A stretch of DNA of 64,000 bases from a phage (GCA_019566135.1 GCA_019566135.1_3044.1), one strand, 5' to 3'; counted from the first letter of the stretch, positions 1,782 to 56,629 are shown. Translations and numbers: made by a program. Notes: generated by a model from the sequence alone, not told the origin.

Positions 1782-4046
1782 TCATAATTTACAGGATGAA
1801 CAATCTTCAGCTTTTGGAGTTTCTATTTCATAATCATCAGTACCAGAACCATCACGGGTATTATGATAATAGAAATTTTTTCCGCCAAAATACCAAAAAT
1901 ACAAAAGGTCATCAATCATTATTGACATTGGAACCTTTCCTTTTGGAAAAATCTGTGGGTCATAATATGTATTCGCCGAAGCTGATTGACAAACCCATTT
2001 CAGCATAATAGCTACCTGCGTAAGATAAGGTTTATTACCTTTCTTAGCTAATTTCCATGTATAATCATAGAGGTCTATGTTATGCTCAATATTGGGCACG
2101 ACTTGATTAAAGGAGCCCTCTTTTGATTCTTTAACAGAGACTGGTCCACGTGGAGGCTCGATACCGTTTGTACTGTTAGAAACTTGGGAAGATGACTCAC
2201 ATGGCATAAGTGCTGATAATGTGCTATTACGGATGCCAAAGAGCTTAAGGTCTTCCCGCAGCGACGACCAGTCACAAACGTATTTTGGAGCTGCGATTTG
2301 GTCAATCTTTTTATTGTACCAGTCGATAGGTAATTCGCCTCGAGACCAACGAGTGTCTGAATAATATTCGCAAGGTCCTTTTTCTTTGGCGAGCTTAATG
2401 GATGCTTTAATGAGTCCATACTGTAATCTCTCAAATAGTTCATGTGTTAAATCGTTAGCATCTTCATAAGAAGCAAAGTTACTTGCCAGCCAAGCTGCAT
2501 AGTTAGTAACACCTACACCGAGGTTACGACGCTTTTTAGCTTTTTCTGCTTCAGGAACTGGATATCCTTGGTAATCCAAAAGATTATCAAGAGCACGAAC
2601 TTGGACTTCTGCCAATTCATTAATTTTATCTTGGTCTTGCCAGTCAAAATTATCCAGTACGAATGCAGAGAGAGTACACAATCCAATTTCAGCATCAGGA
2701 CTATTCACATCATTTGTTGGAATAGCAATTTCACAGCACAAGTTACTCTGACGAATAGGTGCCTTTTCACGAATAAACGGAGTATAGTTATTCGTATTAT
2801 CAATGAACTGCACATAAATCCTTGCTGTTCCTGAACGTTCAGTCATGAGCAATTCAAATAGTTCACGGGCTTTAATACGCTTTTTACGAATATTAGGGTC
2901 TTTTTCTGCTGCTTCGTATAATTCACGGAAACGGTCTTGGTCTTTAAAATAAGAATAATACAGCTCTCCACCCATTTCATGTGGACTGAACAAAGTAATG
3001 TAATCGTTCTTTCCGAATCGTTCCATCATCAAATCATTCAGCTGAACGCCATAATCCATATGACGAATGCGGTTTTCTTCTACGCCTTTGTTATTTTTCA
3101 AAACGAGAAGATTTTCAACTTCCAAATGCCAAATAGGATAATAAGCAGTAGCAGCGCCGCCACGAATTCCACCCTGTGAGCATGATTTAACAGCAGTCTG
3201 AAAATGTTTCCAAAAAGGAATAACACCAGTATGGCGTACTTCACCCATGCCAATCTTAGAACCTTCGGCACGAATCATACCAACGTTAATACCAATTCCA
3301 GCACGTTTGGAGATATATTCAACAATTGAAGCGGAAGCCTTATTGATAGACTTTAATGAATCACCTGCCTCAATAACAACGCATGAACTAAACTGTCGAG
3401 TCGGAGTACGGCAACCAGCCATAATAGGAGTTGGCAATGAAATCTGTCGAGTAGATACTGCTTCATAAAAACGAATAACGTGTTTTAATCTATCAACAGG
3501 TTCATCTTGATGCAATGCCATTCCAATAGTCATAAATGCAAACTGTGGAGTTTCATAAATTTGACCGGTGGTTTTATCTTTAACTAGATATTTTTCTTTT
3601 AATTGCATCGCCCCGGAATAAGTAAATTCCATATCCCGCTCGTGCTTAATTTTTGATTCTAAAAATGTAATTTCTTCTGCTGAATATTTTGACAATAATT
3701 CAGGGTCGTATTTACCTTCATTTACGCAATAAGAAATATGGTCAATAAATGAACGTGGTTCATATTGTCCGTAAACATGCTTACGAAGAGCGAACATTAA
3801 ACAACGTGCAGCTACATATTGATAATCAGGCTCTTCAACCGAAATAGAATTCGCAGCAGCCTTAATGACAATAGTCTGAATATCATCAGTTGTCATTCCA
3901 TCACGGAGATAAGATTTAATATTTTCATATAATTCATAAGGATCTACTGATGTTCCTTCAGCTGCCCAAGATAAAACTTTAATAATTTTTTGTGGGTCAA
4001 AGCTCTGAGAAACACCACTACTTTTGATAACATTAATTAATTGCAT
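1782..4046 (-). CDS. nrdA: Ribonucleotide reductase large subunit
   Basis: 754 aa, same length as T4 NrdA; class I RNR motifs; C-terminal CSSCKL. Confidence 0.93.
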   Translation of the reverse strand: MQLINVIKSSGVSQSFDPQKIIKVLSWAAEGTSVDPYELYENIKSYLRDGMTTDDIQTIVIKAAANSISVEEPDYQYVAARCLMFALRKHVYGQYEPRSFIDHISYCVNEGKYDPELLSKYSAEEITFLESKIKHERDMEFTYSGAMQLKEKYLVKDKTTGQIYETPQFAFMTIGMALHQDEPVDRLKHVIRFYEAVSTRQISLPTPIMAGCRTPTRQFSSCVVIEAGDSLKSINKASASIVEYISKRAGIGINVGMIRAEGSKIGMGEVRHTGVIPFWKHFQTAVKSCSQGGIRGGAATAYYPIWHLEVENLLVLKNNKGVEENRIRHMDYGVQLNDLMMERFGKNDYITLFSPHEMGGELYYSYFKDQDRFRELYEAAEKDPNIRKKRIKARELFELLMTERSGTARIYVQFIDNTNNYTPFIREKAPIRQSNLCCEIAIPTNDVNSPDAEIGLCTLSAFVLDNFDWQDQDKINELAEVQVRALDNLLDYQGYPVPEAEKAKKRRNLGVGVTNYAAWLASNFASYEDANDLTHELFERLQYGLIKASIKLAKEKGPCEYYSDTRWSRGELPIDWYNKKIDQIAAPKYVCDWSSLREDLKLFGIRNSTLSALMPCESSSQVSNSTNGIEPPRGPVSVKESKEGSFNQVVPNIEHNIDLYDYTWKLAKKGNKPYLTQVAIMLKWVCQSASANTYYDPQIFPKGKVPMSIMIDDLLYFWYFGGKNFYYHNTRDGSGTDDYEIETPKAEDCSSCKL

Positions 4047-4363
4047 AAGTCCTCAACTTGAAAATCGTCTTTAAACAATCGGTTAACTATATGAGCTATT
4101 ATATCACCATGACACGGCTTTGGTTTACATGTGCATCCTAGCCTCATTCCACGTAAAGGCTCTAAATGTGCTTTAGTTATTTCTCCGGATTTAATTCGAC
4201 GTATAAAATCTTTTTTGAATAATTCAATGGCAGCCTCCCGGCTGCCAGCATCTTTACCGACGTAATTTCCCCAAAATGTACCACGGTGAATATTAACATC
4301 AAAGTCGGATTTATATTTATTCACTACCCGGCATAGACGGCCCGCGCGGTTGTAGGTGTTCAT
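4037..4363 (-). CDS. Hypothetical protein, DUF4326-like (nrdA.1 position)
   Basis: 108 aa; WGNY...[12 protein letters not shown] pattern resembles the DUF4326 family; overlaps neighbours. Confidence 0.55.
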
Positions 4364-8065: not shown

Positions 8066-8296
8066 TTATTGTTCAATCAGTCCCATGTAAAATTCTGCGT
8101 CTTCAGAATCCATGCCATCGCAATATTCATTAGCCATAAAGCGGGTAAGGTCTTCAAGAGGACCTTCAATGACAATAGAAAAATTGCAATAATTGGGATC
8201 ATCATGAATACTTGTGATACTAAGTTCAGGATAACGATTACGAATAATCTCTTCAATATATTCAAAATCAACGATGTCAATATCAACTTTAGCCAT
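8066..8296 (-). CDS. Hypothetical acidic protein (76 aa from ATG 8296)
   Basis: ATG 8296 lies downstream of the early promoter at 8340-8369. Confidence 0.5.
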
Positions 8297-24697: not shown

Positions 24698-25158
24698 TAG
24701 TAAAGGTCCTCAGAGTAAAGTTCTTTTTCACTACCACCGCGTTCAATACGCACCTGCCCAGCATAAGTTGCAATAATCATTGCTTCTTCACGTGTCCAAT
24801 AATTACTATATTGGTCAATAAACCCTTGGTCATCATCACAAACTTGTTGAGTAACTAACTGTGGTTTAACTATATCTAAAACTTCTGCCATGTCCTTAGA
24901 ATAATGACGAGCGCCTGGAATAATAAGAGTTCGTCCATCTTTTAATTTAAAACGGTTGGCTGCGCAGACAATTCGTCGTTGATACTTTTGATTTTCATCC
25001 CAATATGCAGTCTGCCAACAGATTTCAGGAACTTCTTTCAGAATATCTTCTTCTGTGCATTTATAACCATGCGCTTTAAATTTTTGAACAAGACTCTCCG
25101 GAGTCTCACGAGATAAAGGAACATTCAGCATTTTTAAACGATTGATAAATGGGTTCAT
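24697..25158 (-). CDS. Hypothetical protein (153 aa)
   Basis: ORF; no motif recognised. Confidence 0.5.
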
Positions 25159-25484
25159 TTAAACCATCCTTTAATACGCTGCCACAAAGTTTTCTGCTGA
25201 GTTTTGTTAACACCAATTGAGCGAATAACTGGTTGAGATTCCTGGAATTCTTTATAATCAGCAAGGTAAATTTCGTAAGCTGCATCCGTAAATGAACTTA
25301 TCGCTGCCATAAAATTATTGCGAATACCTATTGGAGCATCTTTACTGTCACGAATAATCATGTATTTACCAGTCTTAATCTTTACAATAGTTCCAAGATA
25401 AGCTCCATGGTACCAAATGTCCCACCCCTCTTGAGTGGGTTCTGCACAACGACGAAGTTCATTGATAATTTCTAACTTGTTCAT
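25155..25484 (-). CDS. Hypothetical protein (109 aa)
   Basis: ORF; ATGA overlap with downstream gene. Confidence 0.5.
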
Positions 25485-25494
25485 TATTTATTCC

Positions 25495-26130
25495 TCACAG
25501 TTCAGATGCTACAGTGATTACTGCTTCAATGTTTTCTGCCGAGCGTTTAATGTCAAGATACACATTACCGTTTTTAGCGATTTTACAAGACATTCCGATA
25601 TCAGTAAATTTCTGAATATGATGTTCCATCATTTTGTATCCAAAAATTCGCATATTTCCATTATTGTTAATTTCAAAATTGCGAATTCCGTGGGTGCGTT
25701 TTTCTAAAATAGCGAGATAGTTACTGCGATAAGTTTCAACCTTTTTAAGAACAAATCCATTTTCATCTAAAAGTTTTAACATAAAGTCTTTATCTTCTTC
25801 CATATCAGAAGTAATCTCGCGAGCTTTACGAGTTGCTCGTTTTTTCAGCAGTTCAGGAGCGTTTTCCTGTGCATATAAAGTTGCTGCGTTTGAAATAATA
25901 TCTTGCGCTTCGCCTGTGATGATTAATCCATCACCTGATTTCTCTACCAGGCCTTTTTTAATCAATACCCCAATATTACTATTAACTACTGCGTTACCTA
26001 AATCTGGATGCACCTCACGAACTTCTGCGGCTGTAATGAAATCTTTCTTAGCAATAGTAATTAAAATCGCAGCAGTTTTTTCATTCAGAACATCGTTAGA
26101 AGCTTTGATGATGTAAGTTACTTTAGACAT
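25495..26130 (-). CDS. motA: Middle-transcription activator MotA
   Basis: 211 aa; MSKVTYIIKASNDVLNEKTAAILITIAKKDFITAAEVREV... matches T4 MotA. Confidence 0.93.
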   Translation of the reverse strand: MSKVTYIIKASNDVLNEKTAAILITIAKKDFITAAEVREVHPDLGNAVVNSNIGVLIKKGLVEKSGDGLIITGEAQDIISNAATLYAQENAPELLKKRATRKAREITSDMEEDKDFMLKLLDENGFVLKKVETYRSNYLAILEKRTHGIRNFEINNNGNMRIFGYKMMEHHIQKFTDIGMSCKIAKNGNVYLDIKRSAENIEAVITVASEL

Positions 26131-26171
26131 TTTCTAATCTCCGTAATTCTGTATCAGTAGTTGATAGTTGT

Positions 26172-26201
26172 ATAGTACCACAGTATGCTTTGGTTGTAAA
26201 C
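26172..26201 (-). promoter_or_regulatory. T4-type early promoter upstream of motA
   Basis: -35 GTTTAC 26201..26196, -10 TACTAT 26177..26172, 18-nt spacer. Confidence 0.65.
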
Positions 26202-26223
26202 CGTTTTGTGAAAAAAATTTTTG

Positions 26224-26253
26224 AAATAAAAAAGGGAGAGCCGAGGCTCTCCC
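26224..26253 (-). terminator. Rho-independent terminator after the gene 52 operon
   Basis: GGGAGAGCC-UCG-GCUCUCCC followed by UUUUUUAUUU. Confidence 0.7.
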
Positions 26254-26258
26254 TAAAA

Positions 26259-26408
26259 TTACTGCATGACTGTGATAACTGTCATAATAACACGTTGAAT
26301 TCCGAACGCAAGAAGACCTCCTGCTACGGCTGGAACAACACCTAAACCCGCCAGTAAAATGCTACCGGATACTAATGCAGCGCTTGTAATACCTATGAAT
26401 GGACTCAT
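26259..26408 (-). CDS. Small hydrophobic peptide (49 aa, MSPFIGITSAALVSGSILLAGLGVVPAVAGGLLAFGIQRVIMTVITVMQ)
   Basis: ATG overlaps the gene 52 stop (ATGA); terminator follows; membrane-like composition. Confidence 0.5.
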   Translation of the reverse strand: MSPFIGITSAALVSGSILLAGLGVVPAVAGGLLAFGIQRVIMTVITVMQ

Positions 26409-27733
26409 TTGATTTCCTCTAAATCTTTAGTGTATTCGGTAACTACATCAGTAGTTTTCCAATATTCGTTTTCTTCTTTCTTAGCTTTAGCTTCTTCAGC
26501 AAGTTTCTTTGCTTCGTCGGAAGTCATATGAAAAATATTCATTCCGACTAGTTTATCAACATAAGAAGAATACATCTCAATTTTAGAAAGTTCTTCGGTC
26601 AGTTCTTTACGAGTTTTACCCTGCACATCAATTTCACCTGAAATTACTTTCTTAATAAAATGTGCCTTGGCAAAGGCTAAACGAAATGCTGATTCAGTTT
26701 CTTTGATTTTGTTATCAATTCGTTTTTGGACATAAGTTTTACGAACTTCAACAAAGTCTTTAATTAAATCAACTACGTTATCGTAAACTTGCAGCTTTCC
26801 TTTCTCATTAATAACCGTAATATTCTGAGAACGACGCTCAATCAACCCGAAGTCTTTCATAATTTTTGCATGGCGTTCTTCTTCATTATCGCTCAAAGAA
26901 TATTCTTTACGGAATTTAACTTTAAAGCCAAAACCATGCTCACCACAAGCATCATCCCATGTAATGAAGCCTTTATCTTCAAGTGGGTCTAAGATTTTAC
27001 TCACATAAGTTTCACGATCATACTTATACGGAATCTCAGTGATATGCATTTGAGTTCGTGAAGTAAACTTATATGTTCCACGAATTTCATATTGCCCATC
27101 AATTTCAACGACTTCACCACGAAATTCTGGGAATTCTACCTTCGGTTTAGTTACTTTCTTTCCTTGAAGAGCTTGTAGTACAGCTTTCTTGACAGAAGAA
27201 ACACTATGAGGAAGAATGTAAGTTGCATAACCAGTTGCAATACCGGAAACACCATTAAGAAGAACAGTAGGAATAATAGGCAAATAGAAAGCAGGCGGAA
27301 TGTGTTCTTTATCTTGATGTACCGGAGCATATTCAGTATCTTTATATACGTTATAGAAATTTTTACTTACGCGAGCAAAAATATAACGACTTGCTGCTGC
27401 TTTTTGAACGGTACGAGAACCAAAGTTTCCTTGACCGTCTAACAGAGGAAAGTTATTATTCCAAGTGTTAGCCATCAAAGCCCCCGCATCTTGTGCAGAG
27501 TTTTCACCATGATGATATCCAAGGTCAGCTACACCACCTGCAATAGAAGCTAGTTTGTGAAACTTATCTTTATTTCCCCGTGCCAAATCAAGAGCTCGAG
27601 CAATAACAAATCGTTGAACTGGCTTAAATCCATCAATCATATTTGGAATAGCACGATTTTCAACCGTGTACATAGCATAAGCCAATGCTTCATTATCAAT
27701 GATACTTTTTAAATCGCGATTATTCAGTTGCAT
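26405..27733 (-). CDS. 52: DNA topoisomerase II medium subunit gp52
   Basis: 442 aa (same as T4 gp52); GyrA-like N-terminal domain. Confidence 0.93.
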   Translation of the reverse strand: MQLNNRDLKSIIDNEALAYAMYTVENRAIPNMIDGFKPVQRFVIARALDLARGNKDKFHKLASIAGGVADLGYHHGENSAQDAGALMANTWNNNFPLLDGQGNFGSRTVQKAAASRYIFARVSKNFYNVYKDTEYAPVHQDKEHIPPAFYLPIIPTVLLNGVSGIATGYATYILPHSVSSVKKAVLQALQGKKVTKPKVEFPEFRGEVVEIDGQYEIRGTYKFTSRTQMHITEIPYKYDRETYVSKILDPLEDKGFITWDDACGEHGFGFKVKFRKEYSLSDNEEERHAKIMKDFGLIERRSQNITVINEKGKLQVYDNVVDLIKDFVEVRKTYVQKRIDNKIKETESAFRLAFAKAHFIKKVISGEIDVQGKTRKELTEELSKIEMYSSYVDKLVGMNIFHMTSDEAKKLAEEAKAKKEENEYWKTTDVVTEYTKDLEEIK

Positions 27734-27737
27734 AAAT

Positions 27738-27878
27738 TTACCATACTAGTGAATGTAGTGCCATAATAACATCAGAAATGAAAAGCACGACTTGAATTAA
27801 TCCAAACATTACTCCATAATATAGTGCTATTAATAAAATAGCAAGGGCTAATGAATAGCCCAAGATTTTCTTAATCAT
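27738..27878 (-). CDS. Small hydrophobic peptide (46 aa, MIKKILGYSLALAILLIALYYGVMFGLIQVVLFISDVIMALHSLVW)
   Basis: ORF between ac and 52; ATG overlaps the ac 3' end. Confidence 0.4.
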   Translation of the reverse strand: MIKKILGYSLALAILLIALYYGVMFGLIQVVLFISDVIMALHSLVW

Positions 27879-28029
27879 TAGTAGATAACAACACAAATGT
27901 TAAATATGCACACATACCCTGAGCTAAAGCTTGCGAAAACACACTGCTGGCATCAATACAGATAGTTAAAACACATGCTACTATCCAACAAATAAATGAA
28001 ATAACTCCTAATAATTTTGCAATATTCAT
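27871..28029 (-). CDS. ac: Ac-like small membrane protein (acriflavine sensitivity), 52 aa from ATG 28029
   Basis: MNIAKLLGVISFICWIVACVLTICIDASSVFSQALAQG...; size and position as T4 ac; AGGAGA SD. Confidence 0.6.
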   Translation of the reverse strand: MNIAKLLGVISFICWIVACVLTICIDASSVFSQALAQGMCAYLTFVLLSTND

Positions 28030-28039
28030 AATATTCTCC

Positions 28040-28195
28040 TCAACTATTTTTAGAACCAATGTACGCGAATAATGATAAAATCGCTAATACGCCCTGAGCT
28101 GATGCTTGCAAAAATACTGAAGTTTCTCCAGTTATTACTGTTCCGATGCATAAAAAGAACCAACAGAAAAAGGCTATACCGTGAACAAATTTCAT
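28040..28195 (-). CDS. Ac-like paralog (51 aa, MKFVHGIAFFCWFFLCIGTVITGETSVFLQASAQGVLAILSLFAYIGSKNS)
   Basis: Tandem to ac with shared motif FxCWxxxC...SVFxQAxAQG; GAGGA SD. Confidence 0.55.
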   Translation of the reverse strand: MKFVHGIAFFCWFFLCIGTVITGETSVFLQASAQGVLAILSLFAYIGSKNS

Positions 28196-28202
28196 ATTTT
28201 CC

Positions 28203-28283
28203 TCACTGGCGTCCGAAGACGCCTTTGGTTTTAAGATTGTTACGATAGAACTGCATCACGTGTTCGTTGTGGAAATTACTCAT
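28203..28283 (-). CDS. stp: Stp peptide (26 aa; trigger of the PrrC anticodon nuclease in T4)
   Basis: Translates [26 protein letters not shown], the T4 Stp sequence as remembered; ATG overlaps the ndd stop. Confidence 0.8.
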
Positions 28284-28741
28284 TAATATGCCTGCAAAAC
28301 GAATTTAAAGTTATCAGCCAACATACGGTTCATTTCTTCAAGTGTTTGATACTCAGAATGATGATTACGAGTAAACGCCAAAGCTAACTGACCTTTACCA
28401 AATCCTGTCGTCAGAGGTTTCATCTTAGAAGCAGGCAGATAAAATACTGTGTATGGAACATTGTTATTTGCAATAGTACGTGCAAGCTGAGACCGACGTT
28501 GACGAATATGACTTAGAACTGCACTGAATCCTTGCTTAGAACGCTGATTACCTACATAAAATCGTGCAGACACGCATGGATTACTAAATGGACGACCATC
28601 TAATTTACTTACTAAAAAGTAAAATCCAGGTTTAGATAAAATATCTTTATGCGGAGTTCCCAAAAACCATTCACCACCCTTGATTGTACCAATAACAGTA
28701 GCACCTGCGTTGTTCAGATCAGTAACAGTCATATATTTCAT
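28283..28741 (-). CDS. ndd: Nucleoid disruption protein Ndd (152 aa from ATG 28741)
   Basis: [33 protein letters not shown]...; position next to stp. Confidence 0.8.
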
Positions 28742-28801
28742 ATTAATTTCCTCTAAATTATTTTCTACTCCAAGGCCGCATGAATACACACGGCCGATAA
28801 A

Positions 28802-29017
28802 TTAATCGTCGCAGTCGACGCTCAATTCCCAAAACTCTTCTACAGTATAAGTTTCAGTATCATTTTCAATACAGAAACGTTCATTACTGTTATTTGCTAA
28901 AGTAGCATTAACTGTCGGTTTCTCGCTAGTGCTCTTAAGAGGTGAAATACGAATTAACTGATCACCGTTATCTAAACAGAAAATTTCACCAACTTTTACA
29001 TCTTTAAAACTTTTCAT
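28802..29017 (-). CDS. Hypothetical protein (71 aa)
   Basis: ORF with SD. Confidence 0.5.
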   Translation of the reverse strand: MKSFKDVKVGEIFCLDNGDQLIRISPLKSTSEKPTVNATLANNSNERFCIENDTETYTVEEFWELSVDCDD

Positions 29018-29133
29018 AATTCACCTCAAGGAGTATAAAATCCAAATGCAGTTGTTGACCATCCCATCCAATACGGAAAATTTGCACCAATGTAAAACAT
29101 AAGAATATAAAACCAAATGTTTAGTAAATTCAT
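29005..29133 (-). CDS. Small hydrophobic peptide (42 aa, MNLLNIWFYILMFYIGANFPYWMGW...)
   Basis: ATG overlaps upstream stop; below track cutoff. Confidence 0.35.
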
Positions 29134-29351
29134 CATTTTACACCATTCCAAATTGTTTCAACTACGGATTTTAAACCATTTTGATGAATATCCATTCCGA
29201 CTACCGCCATCAAATAGATTCCAACTACAACTGAACCTAAGGCAAAAATCAGCATGAAAATGAATAAAGCCGGAAAAATATTATCGAAAAACCATTCAAT
29301 AAATGTAAAAGCATTGCGTTTACGCTTCATATTTTCCTCACATAAATCCAA
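29133..29351 (-). CDS. Small membrane protein (72 aa)
   Basis: Hydrophobic segment LFIFMLIFALGSVVVGIYLMAVVGM. Confidence 0.5.
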   Translation of the reverse strand: MDLCEENMKRKRNAFTFIEWFFDNIFPALFIFMLIFALGSVVVGIYLMAVVGMDIHQNGLKSVVETIWNGVK

Positions 29352-29451
29352 AGTAAACGTTTAATACATCAATCATTAAAACGATTGGGAATATACTCAA
29401 AACTATTAGTATTATAACTACATTCCATATAGCTTTAATAATCTTTTTCAT
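29338..29451 (-). CDS. Small membrane peptide (37 aa, MKKIIKAIWNVVIILIVLSIFPIVLMIDVLNVYFGFM)
   Basis: ATG 29451 lies downstream of the early promoter at 29480-29509; the track's longer ORF is a translated promoter. Confidence 0.45.
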   Translation of the reverse strand: MKKIIKAIWNVVIILIVLSIFPIVLMIDVLNVYFGFM

Positions 29452-29479
29452 TTTCTGTTCCTCCGTAGTTGATAGGGTA

Positions 29480-29509
29480 ATAGTACCACGGAAGAACAGT
29501 CTTGTAAAC
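29480..29509 (-). promoter_or_regulatory. T4-type early promoter
   Basis: -35 GTTTAC 29509..29504, -10 TGgTACTAT, 18-nt spacer. Confidence 0.6.
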
Positions 29510-29516
29510 AACTTTT

Positions 29517-29698
29517 TTAAAAATATTCGTAATAAATGTGAATACCAACTACTACCGCTGAAACCTGTGCAACCCACCATGCACAAGCAATAAGTACAGA
29601 ATTTAAAATTTTCATAATAACCTCATTACAAAAGTAAATGTTAAACAAATTACTGGAATACTAATTAACCAAACAAAACACCACCATAGTGAACTCAT
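29517..29698 (-). CDS. Two overlapping tiny hydrophobic ORFs (28 aa MSSLWWCFVWLISIPVICLTFTFVMRLL at 29612..29698; 32 aa MKILNSVLIACAWWVAQVSAVVVGIHIYYEYF at 29517..29615)
   Basis: Consecutive ATGA-coupled ORFs; very short, so speculative. Confidence 0.3.
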
Positions 29699-29958
29699 AG
29701 CTCAATCTCAGCGATTTTCATTTCATTACTATTAATAGCCGCTTTAAGACTATCTGAAAGAATTACATTCCAGTGGTCATTCATATGACCATTAACTAAG
29801 CGTGTAATTTCTTCAGGAGTTGAAAAATAAGGCTGATCAGACTCCCAATGCGATAATCCTAAGCGAGTATAAATCATGCCTTCATCATCGCTAGAATATT
29901 CAACTGACACAAACTCATCAGTTATTTTATGTTTAGCGTAATAAAATTTAAATTTCAT
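29695..29958 (-). CDS. Hypothetical protein (87 aa from ATG 29958)
   Basis: ATG 29958 with GGAG SD, downstream of early promoter. Confidence 0.5.
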   Translation of the reverse strand: MKFKFYYAKHKITDEFVSVEYSSDDEGMIYTRLGLSHWESDQPYFSTPEEITRLVNGHMNDHWNVILSDSLKAAINSNEMKIAEIEL

Positions 29959-29992
29959 TTTATTCTCCAAATCCGTATCAGTTGATAGTTGT

Positions 29993-30022
29993 ATAGTACC
30001 ACGGTCCTTGTGGCATGTAAAC
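29993..30022 (-). promoter_or_regulatory. T4-type early promoter
   Basis: -35 GTTTAC 30022..30017, -10 TACTAT 29998..29993. Confidence 0.6.
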
Positions 30023-30038
30023 CATTTTATGAAATTTT

Positions 30039-30596
30039 TTAAATGGAAAGATACCATCCGTTGTAGTTGCTTTTTCTTACAACCTTACGAAGGTCTTCTC
30101 TATCACCGATGAACTTCGGAGTGTACTGGATGACACCTGGATGAATTTCTTTAGTGTTGAATATAATTATACAGTCAGCGACTTGATGATTTAGAATGGG
30201 CCCTAGATTTATTCCAGAACCGTATGGATACTCTCCGCTGTATCCTGTCGTTACTGAAATCCATCGAGAGTCAGTTTGGTGTGTTTTAACTTCTACCCGA
30301 AGCCCGCAGTATTTTGGATGTGCTAAAACATCCCATGCATATGTATACGGATCATCGACGTCTTCTTGACCTTTATTAACATACCCACTTAACCAATCTG
30401 CTACAACATACTCAGCATACACTGCGATACGGCATCTTTCGATAACTTCTGCTTTATCCTGGTTCGGGTTTTGTTTTAAAGAGTATCTTGCTGTATCAGC
30501 AATTTTGACCTTCATTTCACTAGTCAAGTCACTGTTCGATAGGGTAAATGTCGGAATCTGAAATAGTCTCTGTAAACCCGGATTCGTTTTCTGCAT
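30039..30596 (-). CDS. denB: Endonuclease IV
   Basis: 185 aa; position between ndd region and rIIB. Confidence 0.8.
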   Translation of the reverse strand: MQKTNPGLQRLFQIPTFTLSNSDLTSEMKVKIADTARYSLKQNPNQDKAEVIERCRIAVYAEYVVADWLSGYVNKGQEDVDDPYTYAWDVLAHPKYCGLRVEVKTHQTDSRWISVTTGYSGEYPYGSGINLGPILNHQVADCIIIFNTKEIHPGVIQYTPKFIGDREDLRKVVRKSNYNGWYLSI

Positions 30597-36809: not shown

Positions 36810-36986
36810 TTATCCTTTAAGTAAGTCGTAAAATCCGCCATTCACATGCTTAGGAGCAGAAGGCCGACGAGTAGACAAACGATGACATTTAGGGCAAACA
36901 TCATTTTCTCGTTCAGAAATCTTTTTAATTTTTTCATATTCATGCCCGCAATCTTCGGATTGGCATTTATAATCATACATTGGCAT
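36810..36986 (-). CDS. Small zinc-ribbon protein (58 aa, CxxxxC...CxxC)
   Basis: MPMYDYKCQSEDCGHEYEKIKKISERENDVCPKCHRLSTRR...; below track cutoff. Confidence 0.5.
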   Translation of the reverse strand: MPMYDYKCQSEDCGHEYEKIKKISERENDVCPKCHRLSTRRPSAPKHVNGGFYDLLKG

Positions 36987-48618: not shown

Positions 48619-48819
48619 ATGGTACAAAAATTAATGGCACTTGTTAATGCCATAAAAGGTAATAAAAAACGTATAGCTTTTACTATTTCTGCTATGGTAG
48701 GAATTTTACTCTGGAACTTTATTTTATCACCAATTGCAATTGCGCATGGTGTTAATATTCCAGTAGTTACTCTTGATACATTTGTAGATTTAGCATTTGC
48801 TTTAGTTGGGTTGATTTAA
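48619..48819 (+). CDS. Small membrane protein on the opposite strand (66 aa)
   Basis: Strong SD AAGGAGG 5 nt before ATG 48619; two hydrophobic segments; converges on gene 61, overlapping its stop by 4 nt. Confidence 0.55.
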   Translation: MVQKLMALVNAIKGNKKRIAFTISAMVGILLWNFILSPIAIAHGVNIPVVTLDTFVDLAFALVGLI

Positions 48820-56479: not shown

Positions 56480-56629
56480 TCAATTGATACATTCATATTT
56501 AACTTGTAACAGTAATAAACCCCAACCTATAATAAGTGTCGGAATCATACAAGGAACCGTTACGCTATAGTATATACTTATTATAATCATCAAGATTAAA
56601 AGCAATACTGCTAAAATTTTGCTTTTCAT
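56480..56629 (-). CDS. Small hydrophobic peptide (49 aa, MKSKILAVLLLILMIIISIYYSVTVPCMIPTLIIGWGLLLLQVKYECIN)
   Basis: ATG overlaps the imm stop (ATGA); stop overlaps the gene 42 SD. Confidence 0.45.
   Translation of the reverse strand: MKSKILAVLLLILMIIISIYYSVTVPCMIPTLIIGWGLLLLQVKYECIN

Follow-up and report, generated by a model that had tools for sequence, protein, structure and literature searches.

What do the tiny hydrophobic reading frames that crowd around gene 52 of a T4-like phage encode, if anything, and what might their products do to the host? The question is raised by positions 26,259 to 29,698 of a 64,000-nucleotide stretch of phage DNA (GCA_019566135.1), the whole of which we call the window. 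A first-pass annotation had noticed here, between motA and denB, at least eight open reading frames (ORFs) of 28 to 52 amino acids (aa) with a membrane-like composition and had proposed that their products could target host membrane proteins. We find exactly eight ORFs in this size range plus one of 65 aa. The best explanation overall, which we consider highly probable, is that they are early, translationally coupled genes for small inner-membrane peptides acting on host membrane components.

The 4 kb from 26100 to 30100 are 98.9% identical to Enterobacteria phage Aplg8 and match 925 phage records, nearly all of them T4-like and from enterobacterial hosts. On this nucleotide similarity the window is a Tequatrovirus, that is, a T4-like phage, and the region is the well-known nonessential "gene 52 to rIIB" early region of T-even phages. 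By comparison with T4, all ORFs except acB and orf87 are long-annotated T4 genes and there is no new gene in the set, while Aplg8 and dozens of other records already carry an annotation for the second ac copy. The initial observation is therefore correct in all details but ordinary, because T4 and its relatives already have annotations for all of it, and its interpretation is supported in part. The genes themselves are textbook T4 annotation, and nothing categorically new emerges. They do touch on a long-standing gap, namely, that these are conserved early membrane peptides with a function known for Ac alone, yet deletion of the region affects both the burst and phospholipid synthesis. What we add is the direction in which the Ac pair diverged, the deletion junctions by which single copies arose, and the relation of T4 ndd.2a and ndd.3 to a frameshifted 65-aa gene.

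Coding evidence for the small hydrophobic ORFs

The ORF list, the start codons, and the comparison with T4 give the minus-strand order denB, orf87, ndd.6, ndd.5, ndd.4, the 65-aa ORF, ndd.2, ndd.1, ndd, stp, acB, acA, 52.1, gene 52, motA.1, a terminator, and motA. The hydrophobic ORFs are thus interleaved, as first described, with stp, ndd, and denB, host-takeover genes, and lie within early transcription units. The nine are as follows (TM, transmembrane segment).

26259..26408, minus strand: motA.1, 49 aa, hydrophobic, Gly/Ala-rich, 100% identical to T4 MotA.1
27738..27878, minus strand: 52.1, 46 aa, hydrophobic membrane peptide, 44/46 identical to T4 gp52.1
27871..28029, minus strand: acA, 52 aa, ortholog of T4 Ac (49/51 identical), the divergent paralog
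28040..28195, minus strand: acB, 51 aa, second Ac paralog, not in T4, of the TGETSVFxQxxAQG type
29026..29136, minus strand: ndd.2, 36 aa, aromatic-rich, hydrophobic, 33/36 identical to T4 Ndd.2
29133..29330, minus strand: 65-aa protein with one TM, representing ndd.2a plus ndd.3 of T4 in intact form
29338..29451, minus strand: ndd.4, 37 aa, single TM, basic N terminus (MKKIIK), 37/37 identical to T4 Ndd.4
29517..29615, minus strand: ndd.5, 32 aa, hydrophobic, 100% identical to T4 Ndd.5
29612..29698, minus strand: ndd.6, 28 aa, hydrophobic, 100% identical to T4 Ndd.6

Their counterparts in T4 (NC_000866, T4p263 to T4p275) are motA.1, 52.1, ac, ndd.2, ndd.2a/ndd.3, ndd.4, ndd.5, and ndd.6, with the same order, strand, overlaps, and flanking genes (motA, 52, stp, ndd, and denB) and 92 to 100% aa identity. 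The window differs from T4 in having the additional Ac paralog acB and the additional soluble gene orf87, and in an intact 65-aa gene that in T4 is split into ndd.3 and ndd.2a by a 1-nucleotide (nt) deletion.

The membrane-like composition was borne out for all nine. Their grand average of hydropathy (GRAVY) ranges from 0.68 to 1.88, and in each, one or more hydrophobic stretches are long enough for a TM. Taking as a membrane peptide one with a segment of at least about 15 to 19 residues whose mean Kyte-Doolittle hydropathy exceeds about 1.6, the best 15-residue segments of all nine score 1.79 to 3.41; over 19 residues, the best values are 2.15 to 3.06 in eight ORFs and 1.29 in ndd.2, the weakest. 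The neighboring stp, ndd.1, and orf87 products stay below this hydropathy threshold and are hydrophilic.

A census of the junctions agrees with the earlier statement that most of the ORFs are coupled to their neighbors by ATGA or TAATG overlaps. There are four ATGA overlaps (orf87/ndd.6, ndd.6/ndd.5, 65-aa ORF/ndd.2, and gp52/motA.1, in each case between the stop of the former and the start of the latter), one TAATG (the ndd stop with the stp start), one 8-nt overlap (acA/52.1), and four gaps of 7 to 10 nt. The 52.1 gene has no Shine-Dalgarno (SD) sequence, and its start lies within the last 8 nt of acA (ATGATTAA). All ORFs that do not overlap a preceding stop have GAGG or GGAG at SD distance, with GGAGGA upstream of ndd.4, and motA.1 has a GAGGA 7 nt upstream in addition to its overlap. 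Under uniform criteria, 8 of the 15 nonembedded small hydrophobic ORFs of the 64-kb window fall within these 3.4 kb, a 10-fold clustering (binomial P = 3e-7).

Conservation across T4-like genomes likewise speaks for real genes. We calculated the ratio of nonsynonymous to synonymous polymorphism (pN/pS; Nei-Gojobori) for each ORF over 23 related loci, comprising T4, T2, Aplg8, RB68, ECO78, Sf23, HP3, YUEEL01, PBM-1, five IMG/VR contigs, and members of Mosigvirus, Gaprivervirus, and Jiaodavirus. In frame, the ratio is 0.06 to 0.36 per ORF: 0.06 for motA.1 (2.2 and 11.8 in its shifted frames), 0.08 for ndd.5, 0.10 for ndd.6, 0.11 for the 65-aa gene, 0.14 for ndd.2, 0.21 for 52.1, 0.22 for acA, and 0.36 for ndd.4. 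The pooled value of 0.18, to be read as one from nonindependent sequences, is indistinguishable from those of gp52 (0.23), motA (0.26), and ndd (0.28), while shifting these alignments to the +1 and +2 frames raises it to 0.90 and 1.49; the purifying selection is frame specific for each of the nine. The ORFs are intact and syntenic across loci of 85 to 99% identity, and four families are kept across genera: 52.1 and Ac occur in all four sampled genera (Tequatrovirus, Mosigvirus, Gaprivervirus, and Jiaodavirus), and ndd.4 and the 65-aa protein also in Gaprivervirus and Jiaodavirus, always adjacent, with ndd.4 directly upstream. Among the sampled loci, motA.1, ndd.2, and ndd.5 are Tequatrovirus specific. 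Every peptide has a PHROG family, among them phrog_3487 for motA.1 (2e-31), phrog_4135 for ndd.2 (6e-24), phrog_3098 for ndd.4, phrog_5011 for ndd.5, and phrog_8851 for ndd.6. Pfam adds DUF7396, the gp52.1 family, for 52.1 (1e-22, 80.1 bits against a cutoff of 27, covering residues 1 to 46 of 46) and DUF7248, the Ndd.2a-like family, for the 65-aa protein (5.5e-20, 71.5 bits against a cutoff of 27, profile positions 6 to 57 of 58). An NCBIfam search for names of these peptides returned no matches.

These results have to be set against the possibility that the small hydrophobic ORFs are an artefact of composition, in which the T-rich codons of an AT-rich genome leave Phe/Leu/Ile-rich frames open in the spacers. 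The ORFs do fall below the usual gene-caller cutoffs, some are left unannotated in several public records (e.g., ECO78), T4 proteomics did not detect the peptides, and of the small hydrophobic candidates in other parts of the window, some at least may not be genuine. However, each of the nine shows frame-specific purifying selection and an SD sequence or a stop-start overlap, the ORFs are intact, syntenic, and clustered 10-fold, four of the families cross genera, and a genetic phenotype exists for Ac. In view of the frame-specific selection, the translation signals, the cross-genus conservation, and the Pfam and PHROG families, we therefore reject this explanation as extremely improbable.

The 65-aa gene also bears on the T4 reference annotation. 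Its product has a basic N terminus (MKRKR), a single long TM segment, and a polar C-terminal tail, and T4 Ndd.2a (40 aa) corresponds to its C-terminal part only, those 40 residues being identical. Directly after the start codon, the T4 reference (locus positions 3933 to 4129) has lost 1 nt, reading ATGAA-CGT against ATGAAGCGT in the window. Judged from this alignment, T4 "ndd.3," in the wrong frame, and "ndd.2a," from an internal ATG, are remnants of a frameshifted DUF7248 gene that is kept intact in the window, in RB68, and in most relatives.

Origin and divergence of the ac pair

That acB and acA are tandem paralogs, as the first-pass annotation had claimed, survived statistical alignment. 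They are identical at 17 of 40 positions, with a local score of 85 against a shuffle mean of 24.1 (standard deviation, 4.9; z = 12.5) that none of 5,000 shuffles reached. Both carry the motif FxCWxxxC...SVFxQAxAQG, and both belong to phrog_2501, aligning to positions 1 to 50 of its 50-position profile (acA, 3.7e-25; acB, 4.9e-26); the junction sequences described below support the paralogy as well. A Pfam profile search of the window proteins did not report PF26944 for the ac copies; this family is listed for many Ac homolog clusters in precomputed annotations. A search of 5.8 billion proteins found just 29 clusters of Ac homologs, the named ones mostly from T4-like phages and several with bacterial-source labels.

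Six residues are invariant in the Ac alignment, W12, T19, V27, Q30, Q34, and G35 in acB numbering, and all six are present in both copies of the window. G35 of acB corresponds to G38 of T4 Ac, and G38R abolishes the function of T4 Ac (10.1101/2025.06.30.662393). An AlphaFold2 model of acB from a 25-sequence alignment (predicted local distance difference test score, 83.6) suggests a hairpin with helices at residues 2 to 22 and 27 to 50 joined by the TGET loop. In Tequatrovirus, Mosigvirus, Gaprivervirus, and Jiaodavirus loci alike, Ac is encoded between ndd/stp and 52.1/gene 52.

The two copies differ in their relation to the Ac proteins of other phages. acB shares 76% identity with the one Ac of RB68, 68 to 70% with Ac of Gaprivervirus, 44 to 47% with that of Mosigvirus (RB69 type), and 37 to 45% with that of Jiaodavirus, compared with only 25 to 37% identity of acA to Ac of RB68 and the other genera. 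Because acB is so much closer, we take it, on these identities, to be the conservative, cross-Tevenvirinae form, and T4's own Ac (acA) to be the divergent copy.

The pair is not restricted to the window. Both ac genes were compared by blastn with 50,697 GenBank phage records, of which 502 match; the tandem acB-acA pair is present in 51, most have acA only, and a minority have the acB type only. Five loci with Ndd found by scanning IMG/VR are all acA only. Aplg8, 100% identical over both genes, RB32, FriedrichZschokke, and ADUt have the same tandem arrangement without material difference, placing the window in a subgroup of roughly 10% of Tequatrovirus, and in these records the pair is annotated "acridine resistance protein (x2)." The leader of acA, AGTTGAGGAGAATATTATGAA, is similar to that of acB, AGTGAGGAAAATATGAA, and the duplicated unit would therefore comprise leader and gene. 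Among the loci compared, single copies show three different types of junction. T4 has the acB leader joined straight to acA codon 2, a precise loss of acB. YUEEL01, PBM-1, and T2 share another deletion, which starts within stp, ends at the acB 3' end, and creates a hybrid Stp C terminus. RB68, ECO78, and Sf23 have the 3' end of acB joined to the 52.1 overlap. These junctions fit a tandem duplication followed by several independent single-copy deletions. In this scenario, the upstream acB would have kept the ancestral sequence, the downstream acA (T4 type) would have diverged, and Tequatrovirus lineages would later have deleted one or the other copy independently.

Some further details of these loci deserve mention. 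The hybrid Stp of YUEEL01 ends in NFGILGSKNS in place of TKGVFGRQ, and the tails in PBM-1 and T2 are close variants (L024, L022, and L021; around 2460 to 2560). The T2 record PV958097.1 (L021) has a nonsense codon in ac (S11*, about 2304 to 2456) and another in the 65-aa gene (about 3467 to 3601), and the C terminus of T6 Ac (P0026) is frameshifted, as is ndd.2a/ndd.3 in T4. The disrupted genes of these classical T2, T4, and T6 records may stem from propagation in the laboratory, where selection on them would have been relaxed or negative. We also considered, and rejected, a third Ac-like gene located upstream of ac in Jiaodavirus or Gaprivervirus, as the candidates (KP179 gp247, DCP80, and UPEC01) gave no match to the Ac profile at E < 1. 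The UPEC01 candidate is a Stp homolog annotated with an N-terminal extension: at 2439 to 2597 of this Gaprivervirus locus (L020), it is called as a 52-aa ORF in which a 26-aa hydrophobic, signal-like extension (MIKLLLLCALVVGISVLNAYAKCVVY) precedes MSNFHNEH.... The start may have been called too far upstream, or this Stp may truly be membrane anchored.

Early expression and proposed action on the host membrane

Transcription signals place the cluster in early units. The minus strand carries three copies of a 55-nt element, 65 to 100% identical, at 26159-26213, 29467-29521, and 29980-30034, in which a promoter scan recognizes a T4 early-type promoter (TTTACA, a 17-nt spacer, TG, and TACTAT). They sit upstream of motA, ndd.4, and orf87, respectively. 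The signals that flank the hydrophobic genes are as follows.

29467..29521, minus strand: early-promoter-like element in the ndd.5/ndd.4 gap, which would drive ndd.4 through motA.1
29980..30034, minus strand: early-promoter-like element upstream of orf87, ndd.6, and ndd.5
26233..26254, minus strand: intrinsic terminator directly after motA.1, with a 9-bp GC-rich stem and a T-run, which ends the transcription unit and is annotated at the matching place in Aplg8

In a T4 time course, the transcripts of motA.1, 52.1, ac, stp, and ndd.2 to ndd.6 were all classed as early, and the Ndd and Ndd.1 proteins were detected, Ndd.1 as an early protein (PMC9697503 Table S2).

As to function, T4 Ac is the genetically defined acriflavine-sensitivity gene product, of which acA is the ortholog. 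Deletion or mutation of T4 ac confers acriflavine resistance, and expression of Ac renders E. coli about 1,000-fold more sensitive to acriflavine and sensitizes it to ampicillin as well, without overt toxicity (10.1101/2025.06.30.662393). The acridine sensitivity is thus documented for the T4-type Ac, which corresponds to acA, and the authors hypothesize that Ac blocks AcrAB-TolC (10.1101/2025.06.30.662393), a block that a 2026 PNAS paper repeats as an assumption. In the saDelta9 deletion, which spans 52.1 to denB, the burst is reduced by half and the stimulation of phospholipid synthesis by the phage is lost (PMC6071114).

In the reading that we favor, motA.1, 52.1, the two ac copies, ndd.2, the DUF7248 gene, ndd.4, ndd.5, and ndd.6 are nine coupled genes for predicted small inner-membrane peptides. 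Early promoters of the sigma-70 type would start their transcription, along with that of stp, ndd, and gene 52, within the first minutes after infection, and each product would presumably insert in the host cytoplasmic membrane. There the peptides would most likely bind or perturb host membrane components, and it is plausible that these include host membrane proteins. Ac, the best-characterized member, is a predicted two-helix hairpin, one polar face of which (W, T ... V, Q, Q, G) is invariant, and its presence makes the infected or expressing cell accumulate acridines, possibly, as the leading hypothesis has it, through a block of the efflux pump AcrAB-TolC. Two features provide a handle on this hypothesis: A-only, B-only, and A+B phages all occur in nature, and acB, missing from T4, appears to be the ancestral cross-genus form of Ac.

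AcrZ is a 49-aa inner-membrane peptide of E. coli that binds AcrB and modulates AcrAB-TolC. AcrZ and Ac are alike as inner-membrane peptides of about 50 aa that alter the handling of efflux substrates, the analogy behind the efflux hypothesis. However, AcrZ is a single helix that enhances the export of some drugs, whereas Ac is a predicted two-helix hairpin that raises sensitivity, and the two share no sequence similarity. In a broader sense, the cluster resembles bacterial small membrane proteins and type I toxin-like peptides, with which it shares a length of 28 to 65 aa, one or two TM helices, and a tendency to be missed by gene callers and proteomics. Unlike the type I toxin-like class, it belongs to the early operon of a lytic phage, is translationally coupled to takeover genes, and has no antisense RNA partner, and Ac is without overt toxicity.

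Several points weigh against this reading. Shotgun proteomics of T4 infection saw no small hydrophobic peptide (Class_P = NA; PMC9697503 Table S2), as is to be expected since the peptides are tiny and hydrophobic, a search of the accessible literature for ribosome-profiling data on T4 infection found none, and among the hydrophobic set, translation is supported by genetics for Ac alone. The one phenotype is likewise tied to Ac, and none is assigned individually to acB, motA.1, 52.1, or the ndd.2 to ndd.6 genes. Insertion into the membrane is predicted, as is the topology, and the pN/pS values combine sequences that are not independent, the one for acB coming from just three distinct sequences. 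The link to AcrAB-TolC is a hypothesis from one preprint; an hhalign comparison of Ac with AcrZ gave a probability of 0.4%, and Ac matched none of the PDB chains at an E value of ≤10.

Two other accounts of the function have to be considered. Ac, and perhaps other peptides, might form a self-assembling pore or act as a general permeabilizer, similar to a viroporin or weak holin, such that acridine uptake rises because the barrier is lowered. The location of the invariant Gln30, Gln34, and Gly35 on one helix face of the predicted hairpin would fit a polar lumen, or equally helix packing, the sensitization also extends to ampicillin, and older literature, insofar as it is relayed by the preprint (10.1101/2025.06.30.662393), ascribed the phenotype to altered permeability. 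Yet Ac in the absence of drug caused no appreciable drop in CFU (colony-forming units; 1.5e9 versus 2.3e9), and therefore no gross depolarization, phage titers were unaffected by Ac when the dye was absent, and an early-expressed permeabilizer would endanger the infection; in our view, the pore is a serious competitor but unlikely. The cluster might instead mainly remodel host lipid or envelope metabolism, or serve phage-phage competition, such as superinfection exclusion, rather than be directed at drug efflux or host defense, with acridine sensitivity as an incidental effect. Here the loss in saDelta9 of the T4-induced stimulation of phosphatidylglycerol synthesis is suggestive, as are the neighboring rIIB and rIIA, which are membrane-associated, exclusion-related genes, and the adjacent early gene arn.4, whose apparent homolog Emp binds the envelope machinery MreBCD. 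The lipid phenotype, however, has been mapped to no single gene, and the deletion takes ndd and denB too, while Pfam, PHROG, and NCBIfam searches link none of the peptides to lipid enzymes or regulators; we consider this account unlikely.

Within the favored reading of host-directed membrane peptides, a more speculative elaboration can be offered, which we regard as doubtful when taken as a whole. The Ac paralogs might be a diversified effector pair directed against different host inner-membrane targets, e.g., resistance-nodulation-division (RND) efflux pumps or pump alleles. The B type would be the ancestral effector and T4 Ac a derived, Tequatrovirus-specific, neofunctionalized form. The frequent independent loss of one copy or the other, seen here in at least three junction types in a region that is also disrupted in the T2, T4, and T6 records, might then reflect host-dependent costs, and the nine-peptide cluster would be a "membrane takeover" module behind the lipid phenotype of saDelta9.

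Neighboring genes and other small ORFs

The soluble genes that accompany the hydrophobic set are the following.

28203..28283, minus strand: stp, 26 aa, soluble, basic, outside the hydrophobic set (GRAVY, -1.03), 100% identical to T4 Stp
28283..28741, minus strand: ndd, 152 aa, nucleoid disruption protein, a context gene, 149/152 identical to T4 Ndd
28802..29017, minus strand: ndd.1, 71 aa, acidic, soluble, outside the hydrophobic set (GRAVY, -0.54), 69/71 identical to T4 Ndd.1
29695..29958, minus strand: orf87, 87 aa, soluble, acidic, not in T4, with a match to phrog_2390 (1e-46)

The orf87 gene is the first after an early-type promoter and is present in every sampled Tequatrovirus locus except T4, as well as in RB69, as ORF270c. 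Within the last codons of stp, directly before the acB ribosome-binding site, lies a perfect GGCGUC-UUCG-GACGCC tetraloop hairpin (28208 to 28223) that is kept in T4, RB68, ECO78, and Sf23 and is gone in the YUEEL01-type deletion; it may be an element of mRNA stability or processing.

Outside long ORFs, the uniform scan also listed small hydrophobic ORFs at 56480-56629, 36842-36976, 48619-48819, and 8077-8205. In other genera, unrelated hydrophobic peptides are found at matching positions. Jiaodavirus loci (L011, L016, and L017; about 2822 to 3010) encode a 51-aa peptide with two hydrophobic segments upstream of Ac, and in Gaprivervirus and Gaprivervirus-like loci (L010, L012, and L020), a 32-aa hydrophobic peptide overlaps the gp52 stop, in the place held by motA.1 in Tequatrovirus. 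Such a pattern suggests that membrane peptides replace one another at given positions.

Finally, a 109-aa ORF adjoining motA (25155 to 25484, minus strand) is a homolog of arn.4, identical to RB69 arn.4 at 86 of 110 positions and labeled "anti-restriction nuclease" in Aplg8. Its length and its place next to the MotA gene match it with Gp94 "Emp" from Mosigvirus AV110, which, according to a September 2026 preprint, binds MreB, MreC, and MreD and distorts cell shape.

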